From contig JAVZLK010000039.1 of NCBI GenBank assembly GCA_038883795.1, positions 1 through 14,501 on the forward strand: DNA of 14,501 nt. Reading direction: 5' to 3'. A model generated the notes under the pieces. It saw only the letters and a program-made list of their open reading frames with translations, had not been told where the DNA came from and searched no databases. Below are positions 1 through 11,821 of the stretch, piece by piece. The stretch comes from Candidatus Bathyarchaeia archaeon. GTDB lineage: Archaea; Thermoproteota; Bathyarchaeia; Bathyarchaeales; Bathycorpusculaceae. Position 1 is the stretch's first letter. Each line of letters starts with the position of its first letter. Made by a program: the position numbers and the translations under genes.

Positions 1-2
1 GC

Positions 3-152
3 ATAAAATCTCAACTCGCCATAATCTTCAACTACAAAAGCCTCGAAATAAGTCTATTCACCAACGGACGTATGCTAATAAAAAACGTAAAAAACGAAAA
101 AGAAGCCCTAAAAATTTACAAGGAAATCGCCAAAAAACTCGGAATAACCTAA
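3..152 (+). CDS. 3' end of a gene entering from the left, probably a ThiF/MoeB/HesA-family adenylyltransferase C-terminus
   Basis: Manual translation from base 3: IKSQLAIIFNYKSLEISLFTNGRMLIKNVKNEKEALKIYKEIAKKLGIT*, TAA at 150-152. The 'lF.nGR.li......eA...Y' pattern resembles C-terminal tails of ThiF/MoeB proteins (recalled, not searched). Confidence 0.55.
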   Translation: MKSQLAIIFNYKSLEISLFTNGRMLIKNVKNEKEALKIYKEIAKKLGIT

Positions 153-159
153 ATACATT

Positions 160-167
160 TTTATTAA
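160..167 (+). promoter_or_regulatory. Archaeal TATA box for tRNA-Cys
   Basis: TTTATTAA begins 29 nt upstream of the tRNA 5' end at 189. Confidence 0.55.
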
Positions 168-188
168 ACCTCAAAAATAATCTAAATC

Positions 189-261
189 GCCGGGGTGGCC
201 GAACGGTTCAGGCGGCTGCCTGCAGAGCAGCTATATGTGGGTTCAACTCCCACCCCCGGCT
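189..261 (+). tRNA. tRNA-Cys(GCA), intronless, CCA not encoded
   Basis: Acceptor stem GCCGGGG/CCCCGGC, anticodon arm GCTGC-CTGCAGA-GCAGC, T arm GTGGG-TTCAACT-CCCAC, discriminator U typical of tRNA-Cys. Confidence 0.97.
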
Positions 262-331
262 TTTAAGATAAACCTCGGCTTGGAACAGATTATATTTAGA
301 TACCGGAGAACTTTCACTTTTGGTTTGTAGA

Positions 332-417
332 CGGGCGGGGTGGGATTTGAACCCACGACCACAAGCTTTCTTCGCTGTTAGGAGGCTTGCGCCCTATCCG
401 TACTAGGCTACCCGCCC
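332..417 (-). tRNA. tRNA-Arg(CCT) with 11-nt intron at canonical position 37/38 (intron 368-378)
   Basis: Reverse complement: GGGCGGG..CAAGC-CT CCT A[ACAGCGAAGAA]A-GCTTG..GTGGG-TTCAAAT-CCCAC-CCCGCCC-G. Removing the intron gives a 75-nt cloverleaf. Confidence 0.93.
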
Positions 418-505
418 CAAACAATAAAATAAGTAAAATGCAGATTTTAACTTAATGCATTCCACAAAAGACTTAAACTGCACATCATCATCTCAAAATA
501 ACTGT

Positions 506-620
506 GCGGGGGTACCCGAGCCAGGTCTAAATAGGCAGTGGGCCAGAAAGCCTAAGATAAGGGGGAGGACTTAAGATCCTCTGGCGTAGGCCTCCGTGGG
601 TTCGAATCCCACCCCCCGCA
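506..620 (+). tRNA. tRNA-Leu(TAA) with 30-nt non-canonical D-arm intron (about 531-560)
   Basis: Acceptor GCGGGGG/CCCCCGC-A, anticodon arm GAGGA-CTTAAGA-TCCTC, long variable arm GGC-GTAG-GCC. The insert forms a BHB-like motif: GTCT/AGAT central helix, AAA and AAG bulges, TAGGC/GCCTA outer helix. Mature length 85 nt. Confidence 0.93.
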
Positions 621-726
621 CTTTATCGGTGTATTGAAGTTTTCATAGTGTCAGCTAGCTTTTCCAGTTTTTCTTCACGAAAACATTTTTATTATATCTG
701 ACGAAAGAAGAATTTAGGGCGCTCAT

Positions 727-1455
727 TTGGCTACAGAAACGAACGAATACGATGCAATATTCAAAGCGTTGAAACATCCGGTACGTCGCCAAATTCTGCT
801 TTTTCTTGAGCAGAAGGGTGAAGCGTCATTTACAGATATTCAGAATTCTGTAAGCATAAATGATACTGGCTTGATGAGCTATCATCTCGGAGAACTAGCA
901 CCTTTAGTTGAGCAAACTGCAAGAGGAAAATATCATCTTTCAGAAATAGGACAAACAAGCATAGCGCTCTTTCGGAAAGTTGAGCAGGAGAAACAGAGGA
1001 CAAGTACAGCGGTTCGCAAGGAACTTGGAAAGGCATTGGGTGAAATCGTTTTTCTTTTTCTTATCGTAGGCGTTACTCTAATGGCTCCATTGAGCGTCGG
1101 CATATATGTATCAGTTCAAAACTTGTATGCACCAACTCTGTCTTTTGTAGAGATGGTGGGCTTGTATTTGGTTGGGCTTTCTGGAATGACTTTTGGCGCA
1201 ATCCTGTTTGCCTTTTATGATCGTCACTATTTTTCAAAGAACTTGAAGACAAATGTTGTTCACTCAACAATTTTTGCCGTAGGCATATTATCCCTATTAA
1301 TTCCTTCCGCTTACGTGAATTATAGATTCGAAGAAGCATCATTATCAAACAACAGCAGCATAACATGGCTATTCATGATTTTGCATGCTGTTTCTTTACT
1401 AGTAAGCGCCCCAATTGTGTCATACACCATAGGTAAACTCACGAGAAGATACTAA
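727..1455 (+). CDS. ArsR-like winged-helix protein with C-terminal membrane domain (about 4 TM helices)
   Basis: N-terminal 'IFKALKHPVRRQILLFL..SFTDI..GLMSYHLGEL..GKYHLSEIG' is a typical wHTH, followed by four hydrophobic stretches. TTG start, with TATA-like TTTATTAT near 688-695. Confidence 0.85.
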   Translation: MATETNEYDAIFKALKHPVRRQILLFLEQKGEASFTDIQNSVSINDTGLMSYHLGELAPLVEQTARGKYHLSEIGQTSIALFRKVEQEKQRTSTAVRKELGKALGEIVFLFLIVGVTLMAPLSVGIYVSVQNLYAPTLSFVEMVGLYLVGLSGMTFGAILFAFYDRHYFSKNLKTNVVHSTIFAVGILSLLIPSAYVNYRFEEASLSNNSSITWLFMILHAVSLLVSAPIVSYTIGKLTRRY

Positions 1456-1555
1456 ATGCGTATTACGTCCATGTTGAATGTAAACTTACCCGTTGTTTCT
1501 GAAACCAAAATTCCGAGAATTTAAACCGAGTTTTATAAAAAAGAATATCAAAAGA

Positions 1556-1563
1556 TTTATATG
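1556..1563 (+). promoter_or_regulatory. TATA box of a probably leaderless integrase transcript
   Basis: TTTATATG preceded by purine-rich CAAAAGA (BRE-like), 30 nt before ATG 1586. No SD motif. Confidence 0.45.
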
Positions 1564-1585
1564 AAATGCAGTTTATACACAAATC

Positions 1586-3007
1586 ATGGAACCTAAAATA
1601 GAATTAGAAAACTTAGAGGATTATACGGAAATCAAAGGCTGGCTTTCAGGGAAAAGTCAAGGTTCAAAATTCAATTATCTCTCAGCAATGAAAGCCTTCA
1701 TAGAGTATACAAAGTTAACGCCAAAAGCAATGATAGATTTAGCAGAAGAAGATAGAAAGAAAAGTGTGAGAGAACAGGGAGAACCAGAGCGTAAGGTCAA
1801 AGCATTTTTCGAGTGGCTTCTAAACGAGTACACGCAGAAGAGCAGAGGCGTTGGCAGAAGAGAAAAAAAGAAAGCGAAGCAAAAAGGTGTAAGCAGAAAT
1901 TTAGCCGTAACCTACTGCAACGCCATAAGAAGTTTTTACAAAGCCAACGGCTTCCCATTAAATTTAAGGATACCTAAAGCAGCACCTAAGAAGGAGAATT
2001 TCAAGCTGATACTAAGAGTCCCAGAAGTTAAACGCTTAATCGATGTAGCAACTAATGTTAGAGATAGAGCAATAATTTTAACGCTATTTCAGAGCGGAAT
2101 GGGAGTATCTGAATTATGCAATTTAACATATGGAGATGTAGTAAAAGGATTAGAGGAAAACGAAGAACCATTGCACATACATTTAATTAGAAAGAAAGAG
2201 CTGGTGGAATACGATACTTTTCTGGGAAAAGACGCAATAGATGCTCTCAAATCCTATTTGGATGAAAGGCGGAGGAATGGAGAGATTTTGAAATACGATA
2301 CACCACTGTTTATCAAACGTTTCATAAAATCAAATAGCAAAAGCAAAGCCGAAAGGTTAACTCCAACACTAATCGAAGCAACCTTCAGAGCCTTAGCAGT
2401 AAAATCTGGACTTGTCTCACAGGAAAGGCTGGAGAGAGCAGACATTAACCCATGCAGGCCACATACACTGCGATCATCTTTCATCAGCATATTGAAAACG
2501 GCTGGATGCCCAAACGTAGCTGTTGAATACATGGTTGGCCATGCTGTTCCAGACACGGAGAAGGCGTACTGGCAAGTTAGAGTTGAAGAGCTTAAAAACT
2601 TGTATAAGAAGTATGAAAAGCACATTAGCATTAGCGGTATGATAGACACGGAAAAGCTTGAGACATTGGAGCAAGATGCAAAAAGGAAATCTGAATTAAT
2701 CGAAGTTCTACTAGAAAACGGAAAATTAAAAGACCAAAAAATCAGTGAATTAACTCAAACATTGGATCAAATCAAAAATCAGTTAAACTATCTTGATTCA
2801 GAGCTAGACTTTCACAGGATGGAACAGATTGCACGGTTTGTAAGGGCTAAGGCACCAACAGAGCAGGAATTGCAAGAATTTCTAAACAGAAAAGGCCTAA
2901 GCCCAGCCATGCTTAAAAGAGAAGAATTAGCATGTATATCCTATGATAGCAAAAACAACAGATGGATATATCAAGAAGACTCAGATACTTACGGGATGGC
3001 CTACTAA
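1586..3007 (+). CDS. Tyrosine recombinase/integrase with C-terminal coiled-coil extension
   Basis: Box I 'RDRAIILTLFQSGMGVSELCNL', H293-T-L-R296, MVGH319 and nucleophile Y328. Heptad-like tail after about residue 350. Confidence 0.92.
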   Translation: MEPKIELENLEDYTEIKGWLSGKSQGSKFNYLSAMKAFIEYTKLTPKAMIDLAEEDRKKSVREQGEPERKVKAFFEWLLNEYTQKSRGVGRREKKKAKQKGVSRNLAVTYCNAIRSFYKANGFPLNLRIPKAAPKKENFKLILRVPEVKRLIDVATNVRDRAIILTLFQSGMGVSELCNLTYGDVVKGLEENEEPLHIHLIRKKELVEYDTFLGKDAIDALKSYLDERRRNGEILKYDTPLFIKRFIKSNSKSKAERLTPTLIEATFRALAVKSGLVSQERLERADINPCRPHTLRSSFISILKTAGCPNVAVEYMVGHAVPDTEKAYWQVRVEELKNLYKKYEKHISISGMIDTEKLETLEQDAKRKSELIEVLLENGKLKDQKISELTQTLDQIKNQLNYLDSELDFHRMEQIARFVRAKAPTEQELQEFLNRKGLSPAMLKREELACISYDSKNNRWIYQEDSDTYGMAY

Positions 3008-3271
3008 AAATATACCTAATGTTGAATCTACACTATTAACAAGTTAAATCCTGTTGCAGTTTCGTGTAAGATTATATTAGTCATATGTGAAAAGTTTATC
3101 TTTACGTTTAAATTAATATCGTGAAAAAATAATAACCGAAATTTAAACGGAACATGGTACTTTTAACCTCTGAAGACGCTATTTTTGGTTATCTTCCTAG
3201 AAATTTGGTGCGCTTTCGCAGTAGAGCAACTATATGAATGAGCCTTGGAATATTCAAAGTGAGGTGAGAAA

Positions 3272-3871
3272 ATGCAAGAAGTTATTGAAAACCAAAATGA
3301 AACAAATAATATACTTCACGAAGAGTATACGAAGGTCAAAACTACTGGTGGTATCCCTAGCAGCAGAAATTTAAGATACACAGAGAACCTATACGCTCAA
3401 ATCAAAGCTATTCAAAGGGTTTTCGGCATTGCAAGCGAACAGAAGATTATTGAAGAAGCTGTGGGTGTCTTATACAAGCTACTGGTGGGCGTCGCCCCCA
3501 GCGAAATAGTAAAACAGGTTAAAAGACAGATAGACAGAGAGCAGAAATTACAACGGTTACAAAAAATACTCGCACAACTCAAGAGATTTCACAGCAAGAA
3601 GGAGACCGTATATCCCGAGTTCTATAAAATAGGCGATTTTGACTGGGTGAAACATTTAGAGGATTTACAAATGCTAGAGAAAGCATTGCGGTTGAACCTT
3701 GATGAACCAATTGTCATGCCAGACTTCTCTGATTTGGAATTTTTCGAATACAAATATAGGATTGTTGGATACGAGCCACTAAAAAGTTATGAAGGAAAAC
3801 TAGCGTTAATTAATGAAGAAATTCGCCTAGTTGAAGAAGTCATTGAGATTCTGCGGGATTTAAGTACCTAG
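3272..3871 (+). CDS. Hypothetical protein with a possible N-terminal ribbon-helix-helix DNA-binding fold
   Basis: SD GAGGTGA upstream. 'SRNLRY-TENLYAQIKAIQRVFG-IASEQKIIEEAV' fits a strand-helix-Gly-helix RHH pattern. Confidence 0.7.
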   Translation: MQEVIENQNETNNILHEEYTKVKTTGGIPSSRNLRYTENLYAQIKAIQRVFGIASEQKIIEEAVGVLYKLLVGVAPSEIVKQVKRQIDREQKLQRLQKILAQLKRFHSKKETVYPEFYKIGDFDWVKHLEDLQMLEKALRLNLDEPIVMPDFSDLEFFEYKYRIVGYEPLKSYEGKLALINEEIRLVEEVIEILRDLST

Positions 3872-3890
3872 GTACCGGTACCATGGTGCC
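3864..3890. repeat. Cluster of overlapping palindromes built from four GT(A/G)CC units
   Basis: GTACCTAGGTAC (3864-3875), GGTACCGGTACC (3871-3882) and ACCATGGT (3880-3887) are all perfect palindromes. Confidence 0.85.
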
Positions 3891-4088
3891 GCCTTCCCTT
3901 TTTTCATTTGGCGAAAAAGTAAATGCAATAACCATAGAACAGAACCAAAGCTTTTCCATCACATATTTTTAAATAATAAGCGAGAATTTGGCTTGTATAA
4001 GGAAAATAAGGCTGTAATAAGCTTTATATAGTTAGTGGTCTATGATACATTTAAGCACTATTTGTGTCTTATACGGGGTTTTTATCCC

Positions 4089-4319
4089 ATGCCGTTGTTG
4101 AAGAAAGTGATGGATATAAATGGTTCGACTGTGGTTGTATTGCCCAAACAGTATACAGATGCCTTTGAAAAGATACACGGAGTAAAACTAAAGCAGGTAT
4201 TGATGGAAGTGAACAATGAAATCGTCATTAAGCCATATATTCCGCCAACAAAACCTGTAGAAGCGCATCTAAAGGAAAAGGAACCAATAGAAATAGGGGA
4301 AATCGAAGAGGTTTTCTGA
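4089..4319 (+). CDS. AbrB/MazE/SpoVT-family DNA-binding protein; start revised from GTG 4035 to ATG 4089
   Basis: MPLLKKVMDINGSTVVVLPKQY...VLMEVNNEIVIKP matches the swapped-hairpin pattern 'K....G.S..V.LPK...i.ikP'. Confidence 0.78.
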   Translation: MPLLKKVMDINGSTVVVLPKQYTDAFEKIHGVKLKQVLMEVNNEIVIKPYIPPTKPVEAHLKEKEPIEIGEIEEVF

Positions 4320-4583
4320 ATGTCAAAATCGAAAATAGGAAAGGACGTTACAGAAAGGAGAGTAGCTATAATCTCAAGTCCTAAGGAAAGCAAAGAATTC
4401 GAAGAATGGAAACAAGCAAGAGAGGAAGAAAGGGAAGAGAATCCAAAATCTGAAGTGGAAATTAAATCAGAGGTTCCAATGGAAAAAGAGCCCAGTGCCG
4501 ATGAGGAAAGTAGAGAGTATGCAAAGTTAGCCGAGGAAATGGCACAAGCAAAACTTAAAGCTTCTAAGGGCGTTGAGAAGTAG
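4320..4583 (+). CDS. Small highly charged (Glu/Lys-rich) hypothetical protein
   Basis: ATG directly follows the AbrB TGA and has GAGG upstream. Composition is protein-like. Confidence 0.7.
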   Translation: MSKSKIGKDVTERRVAIISSPKESKEFEEWKQAREEEREENPKSEVEIKSEVPMEKEPSADEESREYAKLAEEMAQAKLKASKGVEK

Positions 4584-4630
4584 CCAATTCGACTACTTCC
4601 AACAAAGCCTCAGATAAATGATGACGGGGC

Positions 4631-4697
4631 GGTCTAACAACCTCAGCCTCTTAGACCCCTAAAAGGATGATTTGAAGGTTGTGGGGTTAGTTAGACC
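4631..4697. repeat. Intergenic inverted repeat with one GGTCTAA and two TTAGACC copies
   Basis: GGTCTAA 4631-4637; TTAGACC 4651-4657 and 4691-4697. Extended pairing GGTCTAAC-AACCTCA / TGGGGTT-A-GTTAGACC. Confidence 0.75.
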
Positions 4698-4721
4698 TTA
4701 TGGGAAAAGTGAATATAAAAA

Positions 4722-5063
4722 ATGCCAGGTGAAAATGAAGGACAGGAAAAAGAAGCCAACACGAATCCACTGATAGATGCCGTTTTTAAACCACCATTAG
4801 CCGCCGTTTATGTCCATAGCTGTAGTCGAAGAGTATTATCATACATCGTGCTCGGCATTGAGCGAAACCTGGGTAAAGAAAACGTTCAGGTGCTGCCGCC
4901 GTATTTCAACGAGAAACGGCAAAGCTGGGGCATTCAAGTCATAGTCAAAAAATTCCCGAGAATATTAACCGATTCTAAATACGTTGCCATTAGAGAAGCC
5001 TTAGCCACCAGAAGAACCGCCAATGGATTCGGAGATGTAACCTATGTGTCCAATAGCAGTTAA
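4722..5063 (+). CDS. Hypothetical protein
   Basis: 113-aa ATG ORF co-oriented with and slightly overlapping parB. No family recognised. Confidence 0.6.
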   Translation: MPGENEGQEKEANTNPLIDAVFKPPLAAVYVHSCSRRVLSYIVLGIERNLGKENVQVLPPYFNEKRQSWGIQVIVKKFPRILTDSKYVAIREALATRRTANGFGDVTYVSNSS

Positions 5064-6429
5064 GCCAAGAAAGGAGGAACAAAAGGACAAGGATTTTACC
5101 AGTGAACCTGATATACAGCACATGAATCCATCCTTTACCGGTAAAGGATCATTAACTTTTAAATCCGAGAATCCATCGACCAATCCATCCTTTACCAGTT
5201 GTCCGGAGACACAACCAAAGGAAACGGAATTTACCGGTAAATTGGAAACACAAGCAGAGAAAAAGGATTTAACTAAAATAATACCAGACTTTGAACAGAT
5301 TGATAAAACATTTGAGTACGACCTTAAAACGGAGTTAAGTCAAAGAAGGAGGCGTGTTTACAGCGTACCCATAGAGTTCCTTGAACCGTTAAAAAACTTA
5401 ACACCAAGAAGGCATAGTGAAGAAAAAATAAACCTGCTTGCAGAAAGCATAAAGAAGACAGGCGTTTTACACAACCTTATAGTGACTATTCCATGGTGGG
5501 AAAACAGAGAAACAATTGATAAACTTTCAATAGTATGTGGAGTTGGTAGATTCTTAGCGGCACAAAAAGTAGGATTAAAGAGCTTAACGGTTGAGTTGAT
5601 TGTGTTGAGAGACCTTGATGAAGCATATTTGCTATCGGTTACGGAAAACTTGGAAAGGACAGAGCTAAGTAAAATCGAAGAAGCGGATTTTTACATTGAT
5701 TGGATAAATAAAGCAAATGTGCCATTGAGAGACATAGCCCCTAAAATTCATAGGTCAGAGTCTTATATCTATAACATAATTCGACTGAAATCTTTACCGG
5801 TAAAGATTCAAGAATGTATTCATAACGGAGACATACCATATTCTTTTGGACTCTCTCTGCTTGAGATTAAAGACCCAAATCAACAATTAGAGCTTGCCAA
5901 ATTAGTCATAGAGGACAAACTAACAAGAGCGCAATTAGAAGCTAAAATTAGAGAGGTTAAAGGTCAACAAACGTTGGCAAGTATGAAGTTAGAAGTAGAA
6001 AAGCCCCAGCAGGAACAAACAAAAACACAAGAGCCGTCACCGATTCAAAAAGCATTAAGCAAACCATTCATTAAACAACCAGCTAGGGAAATAGAAAAAA
6101 TAACAGAAACAAGAAAATATGCGGAGCCAGATTGGTGGCTTTATAATTGGAAACGGAAGTTTGAGAATTGTGAATATCAGAGTGACTGTGGATTATGCCA
6201 CCTTTACAATGAATGCCATAGTATGCTTGTAGAAAACATCAGAAAATTTGGAACACCACCAAAAGAACATTGGAAGCTTATCAGGTTCCTATATGAGACA
6301 GCGAGACTAAGTAAAGACCTTGACCTGATGGATAAAATTAAGGCGTTGGAACAAGCAGGATTTGATAGTGCTGAAATAAAACAAGAGATTCAGGAAAGAG
6401 ATAAGAAGATTTTTGGAAAGCCAGAGTGA
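5044..6429 (+). CDS. parB: ParB/Spo0J-family partition protein with N-terminal repeat region and C-terminal Cys4 motif; start uncertain
   Basis: 'PRR..EEKINLLAESIKKTGVLHNLIV', GxxRxxA (G166-V-G-R169-FLA), 'ENLERTELSKIEEA' (ENLQR-like) and HTH 'LRDIAPKIHRSESYIYNIIRLKSLP'. Confidence 0.9.
   Translation: MCPIAVKPRKEEQKDKDFTSEPDIQHMNPSFTGKGSLTFKSENPSTNPSFTSCPETQPKETEFTGKLETQAEKKDLTKIIPDFEQIDKTFEYDLKTELSQRRRRVYSVPIEFLEPLKNLTPRRHSEEKINLLAESIKKTGVLHNLIVTIPWWENRETIDKLSIVCGVGRFLAAQKVGLKSLTVELIVLRDLDEAYLLSVTENLERTELSKIEEADFYIDWINKANVPLRDIAPKIHRSESYIYNIIRLKSLPVKIQECIHNGDIPYSFGLSLLEIKDPNQQLELAKLVIEDKLTRAQLEAKIREVKGQQTLASMKLEVEKPQQEQTKTQEPSPIQKALSKPFIKQPAREIEKITETRKYAEPDWWLYNWKRKFENCEYQSDCGLCHLYNECHSMLVENIRKFGTPPKEHWKLIRFLYETARLSKDLDLMDKIKALEQAGFDSAEIKQEIQERDKKIFGKPE
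5095..5804. repeat. Repeated palindrome TTTACCGGTAAA, a candidate parS
   Basis: Perfect copies at 5134-5145, 5230-5241 and 5793-5804. Degenerate copies TTTACCAGTGAA 5095-5106 and TTTACCAGT 5191-5199. Confidence 0.85.
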
Positions 6430-6775: not shown

Positions 6776-7264
6776 ATGGAAGAAACATATTATAATATGG
6801 AAATAAATAAAGCAAGCCTTAAAGCAATCTCAAGGCGTAAGTATGCAGTGAAAATACTCAAATTTCTATCGGAAAATGATGATGAAGCATTTTATCTATC
6901 AGAATTGGCTAAGCAATTGAATATTTGCGATGTTGTTGTGCGTCAAAACATGGATAAACTCGAAGCAGCAGGACTTGTCAGGCGAACTCAAGGCAACCCC
7001 ATTCAAAGAAATATTGTATATTATGAGGTTAAAAATAAAGATGCTGCAATGTATGTAATTGAAAAGTTTAGGCGTTACGTTGGCTTTCAGTTGGCAAGGC
7101 ATGTTACGGAAAGGAAAACGGAGCAACAATTAAGAAAAGATATTGAAGTAGACTGTAAGCGGTTTAAAATTAGCGTGGATGAAGGCATTCAATGTTTAAA
7201 CTTATGTCCGTCAATTGCTAAAGAAAGGCAGTATGATACAACAATTTACTATAGGAAGCCATAA
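6776..7264 (+). CDS. ArsR-like winged-helix DNA-binding protein with C-terminal extension
   Basis: SD AGGAGG. 'ILKFL..FYLSELAKQLNICDVVVRQNMDKLEAAGLVRR..VYYEV' is a wHTH. Confidence 0.85.
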   Translation: MEETYYNMEINKASLKAISRRKYAVKILKFLSENDDEAFYLSELAKQLNICDVVVRQNMDKLEAAGLVRRTQGNPIQRNIVYYEVKNKDAAMYVIEKFRRYVGFQLARHVTERKTEQQLRKDIEVDCKRFKISVDEGIQCLNLCPSIAKERQYDTTIYYRKP

Positions 7265-7572: not shown

Positions 7573-7908
7573 ATGTCAAAATCGAATATGGGCTTAGAAA
7601 AGACCATTTCGCTATTGTTTGACCCCAAAACAAGGAATTTAGCCGTTACACTGCTAACGGAGATAAGGAATAGGCAAAATACGGAGAATCCATATAAAAG
7701 CAATGAATACGTAGAGTTTTGCAAAAGGCATGGTTTCCAACAAACTCAATACTACTCGGTTTTATCAAAGCTAAGGGATTACGGCATTGTCTATAAAACA
7801 GGCGGACATCATGAAGGAATCTATCGGATAAACTCTTATTTTATATTCCAACTTCTCAAAGAATGGATGGAATTTTTGGGTGTTGAATATTCGAATCCAC
7901 TAAAGTAG
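7573..7908 (+). CDS. Winged-helix-like hypothetical protein
   Basis: SD AGGTGA. 'QTQYYSVLSKLRDYGIVYKTGG..GIYRIN' resembles a recognition helix plus wing. Confidence 0.72.
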   Translation: MSKSNMGLEKTISLLFDPKTRNLAVTLLTEIRNRQNTENPYKSNEYVEFCKRHGFQQTQYYSVLSKLRDYGIVYKTGGHHEGIYRINSYFIFQLLKEWMEFLGVEYSNPLK

Positions 7909-8484: not shown

Positions 8485-8703
8485 TTAATTCGCTCCCTTT
8501 AACAGTAAAGATTCAATAGTCTTGTCCATTGTGATTCTAATAAGTTCTTTTGGTTCTGCTATAACTTTTCCGCATTTCTTACATACTTCAACTTTTAGAG
8601 GCTCATACACTGGAATATAGGCTTTAACTTTAGGCTCTGAAGTAGGTTGTTCAATAAAGAGCTTATTGGCTTCTATTCTATTCCAATGACTACAAACCTT
8701 ACA
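8485..8703 (-). pseudogene. Start-less zinc-ribbon ORF (CxxC...CxxC), 5'-truncated
   Basis: CKVCSHWNRIEANKLFIEQPTSEPKVKAYIPVYEPLKVEVCKKCGKVIAEPKELIRITMDKTIESLLLKGAN*. An in-frame TGA lies immediately before the first Cys. Confidence 0.6.
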
Positions 8704-8947: not shown

Positions 8948-11821
8948 TTGAGTTATATTACTGAACGAACCTTGTACCCTCCAATTTTACAGCAACTTTC
9001 TCAGTTTAGTTTTACAGGTCTACAAGAAGTTGACTTAGGTGGCGAATATCCAGATATAGAGTTTTGGCATGGAACTGATCGATTCATATTAGAAGTCAAA
9101 ATCGGAACGTGGCAAAAGAAGCTAGTAAGTGGCATTATTCAGGCTAGAAAATATGCTGATAAAGCAAAAACTGACAACATAATACTAGTTTTCTATCCTC
9201 CTGAAATCAAAAGACCGCTCATTCCATCAGTCATAAGCGATTTAGCTCTAAAAACACCAGTTGATGCGCTGATTCTTACAAAATATTGGAAGTGGGATTT
9301 TATAGGTGGAAAACGTCCAACGCTAATGAACATACTTAGTGAGTTAAAGCAAAAGATTGAAATTAAGCGACCAACAGTTTCCTTAAGTTTAGTGATTGAA
9401 ACACTGAGAGAAAGTATAACAATGCTCTCAGACCACTTAAGAATTCTTAGTGATATTGACCTAGAAAAACTTGTGAATACTGTTGTAGGAAGATTTGACC
9501 TTTTCTTAGCGCTTGGTGAAGCCGGTGGAATACAAAAAGAAGACTTAAAAATGGCAACAATAGACCTTTCTTCCTACCTTTTACTTAATCAAATTGTTTT
9601 TTACCATATTTACAGTCAGCTAAGTAAGAATGTCCCAGAATTACCTGAAATAAAAAATATTGAAGATCTGGTCGAATATTTTAAAAAAATTACGGATATA
9701 AATTACAAACCTATTTATGCGATCGATGTTGTATCCAGCTTGCCTCGAACACCCAAAGTTAATGACCTGATATGCGAAACAATTGAAGCTATAAAAACTA
9801 TCAGCCCTGAACTTGTTGAACACGAGCTCCTTGGTAGACTTTTTCATGAATTGCTTCCTCCTCAAACTAGGAAAGTCCTTGCAGCCTTTTATACTAGACC
9901 AGTTGCAGCAGAGATACTAGCAACGCTTTCCATAGAGTCCTACGATGAATCTATACTAGACCCCGCTTGCGGATCTGGAACTTTGCTAGTTTCAGCCTAT
10001 AAAAGAAAAATGGAACTTCTACAGCCTAAAAATCTCTTAGATATGGCATTAGCACATACTAAATTCGTAGAAAACGAATTAATCGGAATAGATATAATGC
10101 CATTTGCTTCACATTTAAGTGCAATTCATCTGGCTTCTCAGAATTTTGATGTAACAACAAATAAAGTGCTAATAGGTGTTAAGGATTCTCTTCGCTGCAG
10201 AGAGGGAATGGCAGTTGAACCTTTCTCGAAGGCTGTTCAAAAAACATTATTTGAACATGAACTTGCAAAGATTGAAAGTTCGGGAGCTATTAGCCCAGAA
10301 GGAGCGGGTGAGGCTTTCAAATTAAGGAGAGTCGACACGGTCATAATGAATCCTCCTTTTACAAAAGAAGAAAGATTGCCTCCAGATTATAGAAGAGCAC
10401 TAAAAGACTTTGCATACGACTTGTCACCGATTTCAGGAAAAGCAGCAGGCTTATGGGGTTATTTTCTCGCCTTAGCTAGTAAATTTGCAAATAAGAAAAT
10501 AGTATGTGTAATCCCTATCAATCTACTTAGAGGCAGAGGCAGCCTTAGGCTTAGAGAACATTTTCTTAATGGACAGTATACATGGCGATATATTGTAAAA
10601 GCAACTGAAAATTATGGGTTTACTGAAAGAGCTGAATATAGAGACATATTGTTAGTTGTTGACAAAAAGAAAGCTAGCTCGGATGACAAACTGGGAGTAA
10701 TACTACTCAAAAAACGACTTGAAAAAATGTCGTTGGATGAAGCCAAGGCTATCGCTTTAAGAATATTGAAGGTACCTAAAGGAAAAGATCACAGAGAAGA
10801 TGATTTTGATGTTTTTTGGATTGACCATAAGTTCCTTTTTAGAAATAAAAGACATTTAATGCGTTTAGTTGCATTTTCGAATCTTGATAACTTGTTGCTA
10901 GCAAATAGTTTTATGGATAAGATAATAAAACGAGGCGGCGAAAAACTAACAAGACCCTCTGAGAATTGGTTTATCGAAGGATTTCGCCCTGTTCCTCAAG
11001 GGCTTTCTCAAGTTGTTTTTGTAACTAGACCATTTCATGAAGGACGAGAAAAAGCTGCTTTTATGACTTTTGTCAAAGAGGAAGACGAATATATTCATGC
11101 TCAAATCAAAGAAATGAATGAAGACTTAATCATTAGAAAAGATTCAGCCTTGCCCTCACTAAGAACTCTCACAGGTGTAAGAACCTTTGACATTTCAAAT
11201 TTGTATGATTACGTTTTAATTAATCAATATCCCAAAGCTTCCAAAATAATAAGACTATCTAAGCTCAAGGAGAAAAGTGTTGATTGGGAAAAGATAAGGA
11301 AAGAATGTAAAGGTAGATTAACTCGACTTAGTATCGCTCACCGCATAAACTGGTACTCACCTAACGTAGCTCATTTAGCATTTTACTCTGACATTCCATA
11401 TGCACCATCGAACGTATTAGAAGTAGTAAAAGTTGAGGATGAAACTGATGCCAAAATAATTAGCTTGAGTTTGAATTCTACACTTTTACTGCTTCAGCTT
11501 TTCATGCACAAAGAAGAAAGTACAGGAAGATGGTTAAACATAAGAATAGAAGATTTAGTTCCGACGTATGTTTTAGATACAAATAAGTTAAATATGCAAG
11601 AAAAAGAAAGTCTTCTGACTCTTTTTAATGAGCTACGTAATGTTGAATTCCCTGGTTACCGTCAACAACTTAAAGAAAGATTCTGGGGTAGAGTAAAGTT
11701 GGACACAACTTTGTTAAAGATTCTCGGATTTTCGTGTGAAGAAATCCAAAATATTCTCCCTAAAATTTATGATATGCTCTACTATGAAATGATGAAAATA
11801 CGCAGATTAACGAAAGATTAG
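8948..11821 (+). CDS. Type IIG-like restriction-modification fusion: PD-(D/E)XK nuclease, N6-adenine methyltransferase and target recognition region
   Basis: N-terminal 'YPDIEF..FILEVK', 'AFYT', motif I 'ILDPACGSGTLL', motif IV 'IMNPPF' (gamma order) and a long C-terminal TRD-like region. Confidence 0.9.
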   Translation: MSYITERTLYPPILQQLSQFSFTGLQEVDLGGEYPDIEFWHGTDRFILEVKIGTWQKKLVSGIIQARKYADKAKTDNIILVFYPPEIKRPLIPSVISDLALKTPVDALILTKYWKWDFIGGKRPTLMNILSELKQKIEIKRPTVSLSLVIETLRESITMLSDHLRILSDIDLEKLVNTVVGRFDLFLALGEAGGIQKEDLKMATIDLSSYLLLNQIVFYHIYSQLSKNVPELPEIKNIEDLVEYFKKITDINYKPIYAIDVVSSLPRTPKVNDLICETIEAIKTISPELVEHELLGRLFHELLPPQTRKVLAAFYTRPVAAEILATLSIESYDESILDPACGSGTLLVSAYKRKMELLQPKNLLDMALAHTKFVENELIGIDIMPFASHLSAIHLASQNFDVTTNKVLIGVKDSLRCREGMAVEPFSKAVQKTLFEHELAKIESSGAISPEGAGEAFKLRRVDTVIMNPPFTKEERLPPDYRRALKDFAYDLSPISGKAAGLWGYFLALASKFANKKIVCVIPINLLRGRGSLRLREHFLNGQYTWRYIVKATENYGFTERAEYRDILLVVDKKKASSDDKLGVILLKKRLEKMSLDEAKAIALRILKVPKGKDHREDDFDVFWIDHKFLFRNKRHLMRLVAFSNLDNLLLANSFMDKIIKRGGEKLTRPSENWFIEGFRPVPQGLSQVVFVTRPFHEGREKAAFMTFVKEEDEYIHAQIKEMNEDLIIRKDSALPSLRTLTGVRTFDISNLYDYVLINQYPKASKIIRLSKLKEKSVDWEKIRKECKGRLTRLSIAHRINWYSPNVAHLAFYSDIPYAPSNVLEVVKVEDETDAKIISLSLNSTLLLLQLFMHKEESTGRWLNIRIEDLVPTYVLDTNKLNMQEKESLLTLFNELRNVEFPGYRQQLKERFWGRVKLDTTLLKILGFSCEEIQNILPKIYDMLYYEMMKIRRLTKD

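Follow-up and report, generated by a model that had tools for sequence, protein, structure and literature searches.

Palindromes within an archaeal orphan parB gene as candidate cognate sites of the encoded ParB-family protein

The window analysed here is the whole of a 14,501-bp contig (C39) from the 81-contig, 2.18-Mb assembly of a Candidatus Bathyarchaeia archaeon. It carries a gene for an orphan ParB/Noc-family protein (P0001; hereafter the parB gene), and this gene contains three perfect palindromes that share a 12-bp core, TTTACCGGTAAA (Table 1). Upstream of the gene lie a tRNA-Cys, a second tRNA on the minus strand, a helix-turn-helix (HTH; DUF7347) gene and a tyrosine integrase; downstream follow winged-HTH (wHTH) genes, a type IIG-like restriction-modification gene and others. 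Since an archaeal-type small-subunit (SSU) rRNA fragment and ribosomal protein L44e—the latter present, among 14 control genomes, only in the four archaea—were found in the assembly, the host is archaeal. A sequence-only reading of this DNA had proposed a bacterial-style ParB/parS pair, with the palindromes as its centromere, on an archaeal integrative element. This ParB/parS-style proposal is partly supported by what follows: the archaeal host holds up, as does the integrative element, with the gene lying beside integrase and tRNA genes. From sequence comparisons, we consider it on balance probable that the three palindromes are cognate sites for the ParB-family product of the surrounding gene.

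Exact copies of TTTACCGGTAAA start at 5134, 5230 and 5793 (sites 1–3). All are within the parB gene and none lies elsewhere in the assembly, which holds eight more copies with one mismatch and 124 in all at up to two mismatches. At this tolerance the window has six matches against 0.96 expected, a number that none of 200 shuffles reached. A scan confirmed that each 12-mer extends into a longer perfect palindrome, as had been reported. The symmetric pairs beyond the core number four, two and four, for which the joint chance is about 1.7e-6 given the base composition; the empirical probability of extension is 0.066 for at least two pairs and 0.004 for at least four. The assembly contains 55 perfect palindromes of at least 16 bp, about the chance number, and two of its six perfect 20-bp palindromes are in the parB gene. 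Written as 16-bp dyads, the sites have the layout xxTTTACC|GGTAAAxx (CCTTTACC|GGTAAAGG, AATTTACC|GGTAAATT and TCTTTACC|GGTAAAGA) and share their half-site register with bacterial parS (TGTTTCACGTGAAACA) and the Noc-binding site NBS (TATTTCCCGGGAAATA), both as printed in the literature, namely TTT at positions 3–5 and C at the dyad. In these three in-gene dyads of 16–20 bp, the locus has the palindromic parS-type sites by which ParABS systems are recognized. Of two degenerate copies proposed earlier, the one at 5095 stands, with two mismatches, whereas the one at 5191 is a remnant that retains TTTACCAGT only and shares an 18-nt direct repeat (family D20) with site 1. A further near-copy at 8497–8516 could be a decayed fourth site or a chance match. 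The hexamer ACCGGT occurs four times in the window (0.91 expected; at least four in 1 of 200 shuffles), and all copies lie between 3874 and 5801, as had been seen by eye.

The palindromes are made by codon choice and not by the encoded peptide. Reading phase is 0 at 5095, 5134, 5191 and 5230 and 2 at 5793, so that the first sites encode F-T-G-K and the last S-L-P-V-K, a point that the sequence-only reading had made correctly. When synonymous codons were redrawn from the gene's own usage, with success scored for any palindrome as long anywhere in the local stretch, recoding reproduced a palindrome in 1 (site 1), 33 (site 2) and 0 (site 3) of 2000 trials. Because site 3 lies in another phase and recoding rarely yields palindromes, the constraint is on the DNA, as had been argued earlier from the phase change. 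Sites 1 and 2 fall within a 96-bp tandem duplication (units 5095–5190 and 5191–5286), the units of which are identical at 47 of 96 positions (49%); both units keep TTTACCAGT and, 39 bp on, all 12 positions of the 12-mer. The peptide around these two sites is modelled by AlphaFold2 as disordered (pLDDT about 30). A natural variant is consistent with such a constraint. In the sequencing runs containing the sequence, all labelled hot-springs metagenome, we found an 81x contig (run X2) that covers 5121–6401 with 64 differences (~5% diverged). Between 5151 and 5850 it has 31 differences, none of them in the 12-mer of site 2 and none between 5696 and 5816, where site 3 lies. The flanks of site 2 changed (5228 A>C, 5229 A>C and 5242 T>G), whereby the −1/+1 pair turned from A.T to C.G, the pair already found at sites 1 and 3. 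We regard this variant as suggestive, not decisive, evidence for constraint on the sites. Among the runs with this sequence none was listed as RNA, and X1, X3 and X4 leave parts of the stretch uncovered.

Comparison with other archaeal ParB-HTH genes places site 3 at a position where such genes recurrently carry palindromes. A profile of four ParBs matched in 119 of 401 genomes of the archaeal class, the source genome included, and we compared 81 ParB-HTH frames, of which five belong to this genome and 76 to others. Counting palindromes with arms of at least 7 bp and a spacer of 0–2, we found 44 in 82.4 kb of frame sequence and 61 in 194.9 kb of flanking sequence. Half of the in-frame palindromes (22 of 44, in 22 of 81 frames) fall in a hot spot at columns 0 to +24 from the proline of the 'LP..(I/V)Q' motif, a 25-column stretch that makes up about 7% of an average frame; by a tally of rows, they come from 19 genomes and 15 genera. 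Within the hot spot, site 3 of the window sits at column 0 and most others at +5 to +11. With one incomplete frame excluded, 9 of 80 hot-spot windows contain a perfect 9+9 dyad, compared to 2 of 735 equal-sized control windows from the same frames, and at least eight of nine pairs are matched in 21 of 80 versus 24 of 735. The recoding null, applied to 23 palindromes (20 of them in the hot spot), reproduced each in 0–90 of 2000 trials.

The sequence TTTACCGGTAAA was absent from the other 80 ParB loci; at the same place in the gene about a quarter of the sampled loci, when examined as the sequence-only reading had recommended, carry other, lineage-specific palindromes. They vary between ParB subfamilies and are kept within them: five frames in which the helix reads GKDVAW..RH have GTTGACACGTG.CAAC, and three with the helix GKSDSY have TACAC(GCGC/ACGT)GTGTA. 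Two loci from different genera (L002 and L005) share a 26-bp palindrome except at one compensatory pair, G..C versus A..T, in which one change is non-synonymous and one synonymous. Three of the four other ParB-HTH paralogs in the source genome likewise have a long in-gene palindrome of their own, each single-copy in the assembly (Table 1); the paralog on C21 has none, and that on C48 is cut by the contig end. Where checked, the hot-spot palindromes of other genomes occur rarely or not at all outside the gene that carries them. No neighbour gene family is common to the hot-spot loci—at most three loci share one—and in two ParB subfamilies with conserved neighbours the palindrome is mostly absent. 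Complementarity continues across the centre in 15 of the 22 hot-spot palindromes, which speaks for the site of a dimeric protein, since such a site needs this pairing and a hairpin does not. As in the window's parB gene, moreover, a single gene (L036) combines an N-terminal copy and a hot-spot copy of one and the same palindrome, here of 17 bp.

That the gene belongs to the ParB family, as had been supposed, is borne out by profile scores above the cut-offs for PF02195 (32.3 bits, cut-off 26.3; 1e-7), PF17762 (59 bits, cut-off 22.6; 5.7e-16) and TIGR00180 (76.1 bits, cut-off 58.45), the last of which defines the ParB/Spo0J/RepB family; PF07506 (RepB) stays under its cut-off. Among sequences in the Protein Data Bank (PDB), P0001 is closest to Spo0J (6sdk, E 2e-18), followed by ParB and Noc down to 1e-14, and matches to KorB are weak (8qa8, E 3.4e-5; 1r71, 0.005). 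The protein consists of an N-terminal extension (residues 1–72, low confidence), a ParB_N fold, the ParB HTH, a linker and a helical C-terminal part. An AlphaFold2 model built from a five-sequence alignment is confident at residues of about 100–310 and unconfident at 1–72 and 319–381. Its best Foldseek matches are Noc and ParB (E about 1e-12), with KorB also found, and its DNA-binding part superposes on the complex of the Noc DNA-binding domain (DBD) with NBS (6y93_B; TMt 0.88, rmsd 2.1 Å). The start codon is backed by the sequence M[CS]PIAVKP, conserved in the closest homolog P0002 (50% identity, from a 1743-bp JGI contig).

P0001 departs from partition proteins in several respects. In box II, Spo0J IVAGERRFRAA aligns to IVCGVGRFLAA, so that the arginine patch GERRxR is degenerate; P0002 has GVGR and three relatives GNAR, only G...R being kept. 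A box III-type motif is retained (ENLERTEL versus ENLQREDL of Spo0J). A survey paper (10.1101/2025.10.10.680097) reports that nucleotide specificity is not reliably predicted by sequence analysis or AlphaFold3. P0001 lacks the ParA-contact motif LG(R/K)GL, searched as [LIVFM]G[KR]G[LIVFM], and no ParA-like gene was detected in any open reading frame (ORF) of the window by Pfam or NCBIfam, or on the five ParB-bearing contigs (C39, C38, C46, C21 and C48) by PF13614 and PF01656; an adjacent ParA as in ParABS systems is therefore lacking. A Cys-x5-Cys-x2-Cys-x5-Cys motif (6169–6216, residues 376–391), just ahead of which the model is unconfident, is invariant in five of five relatives (28–56% identity) and points to a metal or Fe-S site in the subfamily's C-terminal part. 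The subfamily is rare: P0002 was the one 50%-identical protein among 5.8 billion clusters, and only two matches at E 1e-30, P0001 itself included, were present among 1.84 billion representatives. A viral contig collection yielded no relative, a genome contig collection only a Crocosphaera ParB (27% identity), and plasmid and phage collections only generic bacterial ParB, Spo0J and Noc proteins (24–36%).

Among characterized systems, Spo0J/parS has the same domain order, ParB_N then ParB HTH, and its parS is likewise a 16-bp perfect dyad of the register given above. An in-gene site also has a precedent there, parS-359 of Bacillus being described as located 'within the parB gene' in PMC4442127; as a control, the annotated Bacillus thuringiensis spo0J has an in-gene GTTTCACGTGAAAC, 57 residues past the LP proline and hence outside the archaeal hot spot. 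P0001 differs in having no adjacent ParA and no ParA-contact motif, in its box II sequence GVGRFL and in its C-terminal four-cysteine motif, and the window sites differ from bacterial parS in sequence and in being three copies all confined to the gene. Noc offers the best structural and NCBIfam likeness (7nfu, E 1.3e-12; 6y93_B as above; TIGR04285, 100.2 bits) and is, like P0001, an orphan without ParA; NBS, the sequence of which appears in PMC7383237, has TTT.CC|GG.AAA in common with the window sites in the same register. Nonetheless, P0001 is not a Noc by the NCBIfam model, 100.2 bits being far under the 315 demanded, nor by its specificity residues (E, I, S, S instead of Q, K, K, R), and it differs from Noc in its archaeal host, its location on a mobile element and its sites, found only in the gene whereas NBS is spread over the chromosome.

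KorB of RK2, a ParB-family protein that acts as a regulator as well as in partition, matches P0001 in fold (8qa9_B, TMt 0.69). Its OB oligonucleotide GGGATATTTTAGCGGCTAAAAGGA, as printed in PMC11790492, is palindromic with TTTA...TAAA arms, and beside it can be set the core TTTAGCGCTAAA of the L002 and L005 palindromes. P0001 is not assignable to KorB, since sequence similarity is weak and no KorA, TrbA-type or IncC partner was found; moreover, KorB needs CTP for sliding and the phosphate-binding patch is degenerate in P0001. The AspA-ParB-ParA system of pNOB8 and SegAB are archaeal, and some lie on mobile elements, like P0001, to which the N-domain of pNOB8 ParB is a distant fold match (5k5d_B, E 1.2e-4, 15% identity). 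Site recognition in these systems falls to a separate small protein (AspA or SegB), and their loci also encode a ParA-type ATPase. P0001, by contrast, retains a bacterial-type HTH, no ParA was found, and the small ORFs upstream have no assigned family.

Two observations on other ParB homologs were made in passing. An archaeal ParB whose recognition helix looks canonical (L015, genome G090) has, ~330 bp upstream of its reading frame, a 22-bp palindrome (981–1002). The core of this palindrome departs from bacterial parS at one base pair in each dyad, CATG replacing the CACGTG symmetry; this case hints at near-canonical ParB/parS pairs in archaea. In a Crocosphaera record (L009), two identical 24-bp perfect palindromes (6850–6873 and 7656–7679) lie just downstream of a ParB homolog.

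The hot-spot pattern, the rarity with which recoding yields the palindromes, their near-privacy to the gene, the lack of a common neighbour and the half-site register shared with parS and NBS together make a cognate pair of ParB and site the best reading of the three palindromes. A ParB dimer would dock on a candidate site (e.g. CTTTACCGGTAAAG) via its HTH domains and could nucleate a ParB–DNA complex on the integrated element. Such a complex might autoregulate or silence the operon that contains the sites, by roadblock or short-range spreading, or might mark the element. It would resemble the orphans Noc, KorB and VirB more than a ParA-driven centromere, as there is no nearby ParA, no contact motif and only a degenerate arginine patch. 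A site placed inside its reader's gene would keep the two linked whenever the gene moves.

Several observations weigh against this pairing. The centre of the window's hot-spot site lies ~8 codons before its position in most homologs, and about 58 of 80 ParB-HTH frames have no strong hot-spot dyad. The unchanged 12-mers of the X2 variant are not significant alone (P about 0.3), and a low-depth contig (2x, run X3) has 5229 A>C without the partner change. Several parS-contacting residues of Caulobacter ParB are not kept in P0001 (Q162->L228, G170->H236 and R204->L270), and by alignment its specificity positions are E239, I245, S250 and S267. These positions hold R/T/A/G in ParB and Q/K/K/R in Noc, according to PMC7383237; E, I, S, S would fit a different specificity. 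The DNA of P0002 was absent from metagenome contigs, as judged by an alignment search and a degenerate pattern for EEKINLLAESIKKTG. The exact 12-mer also occurs in 74 of the class's 400 other genomes, none of which has a close P0001 relative; another protein must read it there. In nine clusters, 15 of 20 copies adjoin, by eye, a tRNA 3′ end or what looks like a T-arm with a 3′ acceptor strand, and among 20 sampled single copies eight are tRNA-linked by eye and four by a strict T-arm pattern.

That the sites form a true partition centromere, onto which ParB would load so that the excised circle is segregated by a ParA/MinD-type ATPase from the host or from an unassembled part of the element, is in our estimate unlikely. 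All evidence for a pair of ParB and site applies to a centromere too, and in-gene parS is established for Bacillus (parS-359, PMC4442127; B. thuringiensis spo0J). Several ParA/MinD-like P-loop ATPases exist in the genome (C3, C9, C34, C70 and C6; matches to PF13614 and PF01656 on C1, C3, C6, C9, C34, C70 and C78), and the contig is just 14.5 kb, beyond which the element may extend. Set against this are the lack of a ParA-like gene on any ParB-bearing contig, the missing contact motif and the box II sequence GVGRFL in place of GERRxR, where relatives keep only G-x-x-R. 'Centromere' is accordingly a term of the sequence-only reading that outruns the evidence.

The element probably begins at 622–633, where a decayed copy of the 12-mer, TTTATCGGTGTA, directly follows a tRNA and precedes the HTH and integrase genes. 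This tRNA (505–621) was read by eye and went uncalled in the window by ARAGORN and Rfam; ARAGORN does call an intron-bearing tRNA-Ser with the same 3′ end in another genome (L094). The 59-nt 3′ part of the window tRNA turns up again on contigs C20 and C62. The element probably integrated at this tRNA and not at tRNA-Cys. A TATA-like box near 4017, read by eye, may mark the operon promoter. Upstream of the parB gene, the small ORFs 4089–4319, 4320–4583 and 4722–5063 have no family by Pfam or NCBIfam; an Atlas structure search with the product of the last gave only sub-threshold, PriA_C-like rows, and the first looks AbrB-like by eye. A further 12-bp palindrome, GGTACCGGTACC (3873–3884), with a TACCGGTA core, overlaps a second palindrome, GTACCTAGGTAC, and lies just past the stop codon of ORF 3272–3871, ahead of a T-run; a terminator-like stem was called at 3876–3891. 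The restriction-modification/methylase gene (8948–11821, type IIG-like) encodes 957 aa with N6_Mtase, Eco57I and MmeI-type domains, and relatives of its product (25–35% identity) are found on at least nine other contigs of the genome.

Table 1. Features of the window, and palindromes in paralogous ParB-HTH genes of the same genome (contig given before the colon)
Feature	Position	Strand	Description
parB gene	5044–6429	+	Orphan ParB/Noc-family protein P0001, 461 aa; Pfam, NCBIfam, PDB sequence matches, AlphaFold2, Foldseek
Site 1, ATCCTTTACCGGTAAAGGAT	5130–5149		20-bp perfect palindrome; codons 30–35, P-S-F-T-G-K-G-S
Site 2, AATTTACCGGTAAATT	5228–5243		16-bp perfect palindrome; E-F-T-G-K-L
Site 3, AATCTTTACCGGTAAAGATT	5789–5808		20-bp perfect palindrome; other phase, K-S-L-P-V-K-I; at the family hot spot in the HTH-coding segment
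Degenerate copy, TTTACCAGTGAA	5095–5106		2 mismatches; 39 bp upstream of site 1
Half-site remnant, TTTACCAGTTGT	5191–5202		4 mismatches, only TTTACCAGT kept; 39 bp before site 2
Possible decayed copy of site 3 plus 3′ flank, CTTTAACAGTAAAGATTCAA	8497–8516		18/20 identical; intergenic, before the restriction-modification gene; borderline significance
tRNA-Cys	189–261		
Probable intron-bearing class II (Ser-like) tRNA	505–621	+	By-eye reading
Probable left edge of integrated element, TTTATCGGTGTA	622–633		3 mismatches to the 12-mer; directly 3′ of the intron-bearing class II tRNA
DUF7347 HTH gene	727–1455		
Tyrosine-recombinase integrase of the element	1586–3007	+	PF00589, E 1.1e-17
Rrf2-like wHTH gene	6776–7264		
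Paralog palindrome	C38:10307–10326		20-bp, perfect
Paralog palindrome	C38:14311–14328		8+2+8, parS-like
Paralog palindrome	C46:2246–2270		25-bp, 12+1+12

Less likely still than a centromere is that the motif belongs to another system altogether, being read by the integrase, an accessory factor or a host protein at junctions between tRNA and element, with the copies in parB as secondary sites or recombination scars. The tRNA-linked copies speak for it. They occur at L083–L111 in other genomes, often with a short T-rich spacer, and Rfam confirmed one tRNA beside a clustered copy; in L093 and L094, a tRNA 3′ end as in the window is followed by the exact motif. In the source genome, five of the eight one-mismatch copies are tRNA-linked (C21:261, C10:32664, C1:148159, C20:2250 and C62:591), the tRNA-junction variant being TTTACTGGTAAA, and that at C21:261 adjoins a tRNA; its contig also bears a ParB paralog and an integrase. 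The decayed copy at 622 occupies a comparable place. By a tally of rows, family f1 has 46 motif copies versus 25 of a reversed control, and a hand count there gave nine genomes with both the 12-mer and ParB-HTH, 16 with ParB only, 17 with the motif only and 61 with neither; the genome-level link between the two looked weak, and related genomes are not independent. Given the tRNA-linked copies across genomes, a TTTACYGGTAAA-type palindrome marks tRNA-linked junctions in an archaeal family independently of P0001. The genome-wide motif count that the sequence-only reading had called for cuts both ways: exact copies in this genome are confined to the parB gene, and yet the one-mismatch copies adjoin tRNAs, so that the motif is not private to ParB biology.

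In five genomes, two tRNA-motif units face outward around 1.5–7.6 kb of ordinary genes (esterase, histidine kinase, GH130 enzyme, ferredoxin) with no integrase between them, which does not favour a recombination system; such units may be att flanks, scars or a small dispersed repeat family. We also considered rRNA processing stems at these motif pairs and rejected them, since tRNAs were all that Rfam detected there. A spacerless 12-bp dyad is also unlike the usual core sites of tyrosine recombinases. Furthermore, none of the 80 other ParB loci carries the motif, and another system would leave unexplained why site 3 coincides with the hot spot at which unrelated ParB genes have palindromes of their own. 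Either the ParB adopted a palindrome used by another system, or another factor reads all copies.

Hairpins in mRNA or single-stranded DNA, for instance a 5′ coding-region structure that tunes the ParB level, are a very improbable explanation. An mRNA structure at the 5′ end of Caulobacter parB controls ParB abundance, according to PMC13371061, and in the window the flank symmetry differs between copies while pairing is kept, which resembles stem covariation. However, the predicted folds have low stability (−6.6, −3.4 and −6.4 kcal/mol at 37 °C; z-scores −1.2, −0.6 and −1.0) and the best fold of site 2 lacks the palindromic hairpin; at a hot-springs source the stems would be weaker still. Neither an identical 12-nt core nor complementarity through the centre is required by a stem-loop, and site 3 lies 750 nt into the gene. 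Least credible of all is that the sites have no function and are by-products of a duplicated NPSFTGK peptide repeat plus one chance match: sites 1 and 2 do lie in a tandem duplication, an 18-nt direct repeat ties site 1 to 5191 and P0002 retains NPTFTGK and EFT, but the third copy stands in another phase within a conserved domain, the recoding results contradict a by-product, the 12-mer is perfect in units only 49% identical, the 2.18 Mb hold no further exact copy, and the symmetric flanks and the hot-spot pattern of homologs would go unaccounted for.

To our knowledge, no DNA sites or functions have been assigned to archaeal ParB-HTH proteins. Their existence is known, and a survey from 2025 judged a segregation role unlikely and left them aside. 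A literature search, which lay outside supplementary files, found neither the 12-mer in a ParB context nor an archaeal in-gene ParB site or a site at the hot-spot position of a parB gene. As far as these searches go, archaeal ParB-HTH genes with a palindrome of their own at a fixed hot spot are an undescribed pattern.

More tentatively than for the window alone, we suggest that orphan ParB-HTH genes of this archaeal class may be modules in which reader and site share one gene without ParA, each lineage having its palindrome at a fixed hot spot past the recognition helix. With its own palindrome inside its own gene, the specificity of such a protein and its site would co-evolve within a single gene. 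The window would be a member with a tripled site, the palindrome of which also marks junctions between tRNAs and mobile elements. If this is true, a ParB-type protein would be linked to control of the integration, excision or silencing of archaeal integrative elements. If the hot-spot palindromes are indeed cognate sites, the window and the 21 further hot-spot loci would constitute testable protein/site pairs with more than a dozen distinct specificities. They would allow direct tests of archaeal ParB proteins as NTP-dependent clamps, of the role of an orphan ParB on an integrative element and of the co-divergence of specificity and site.

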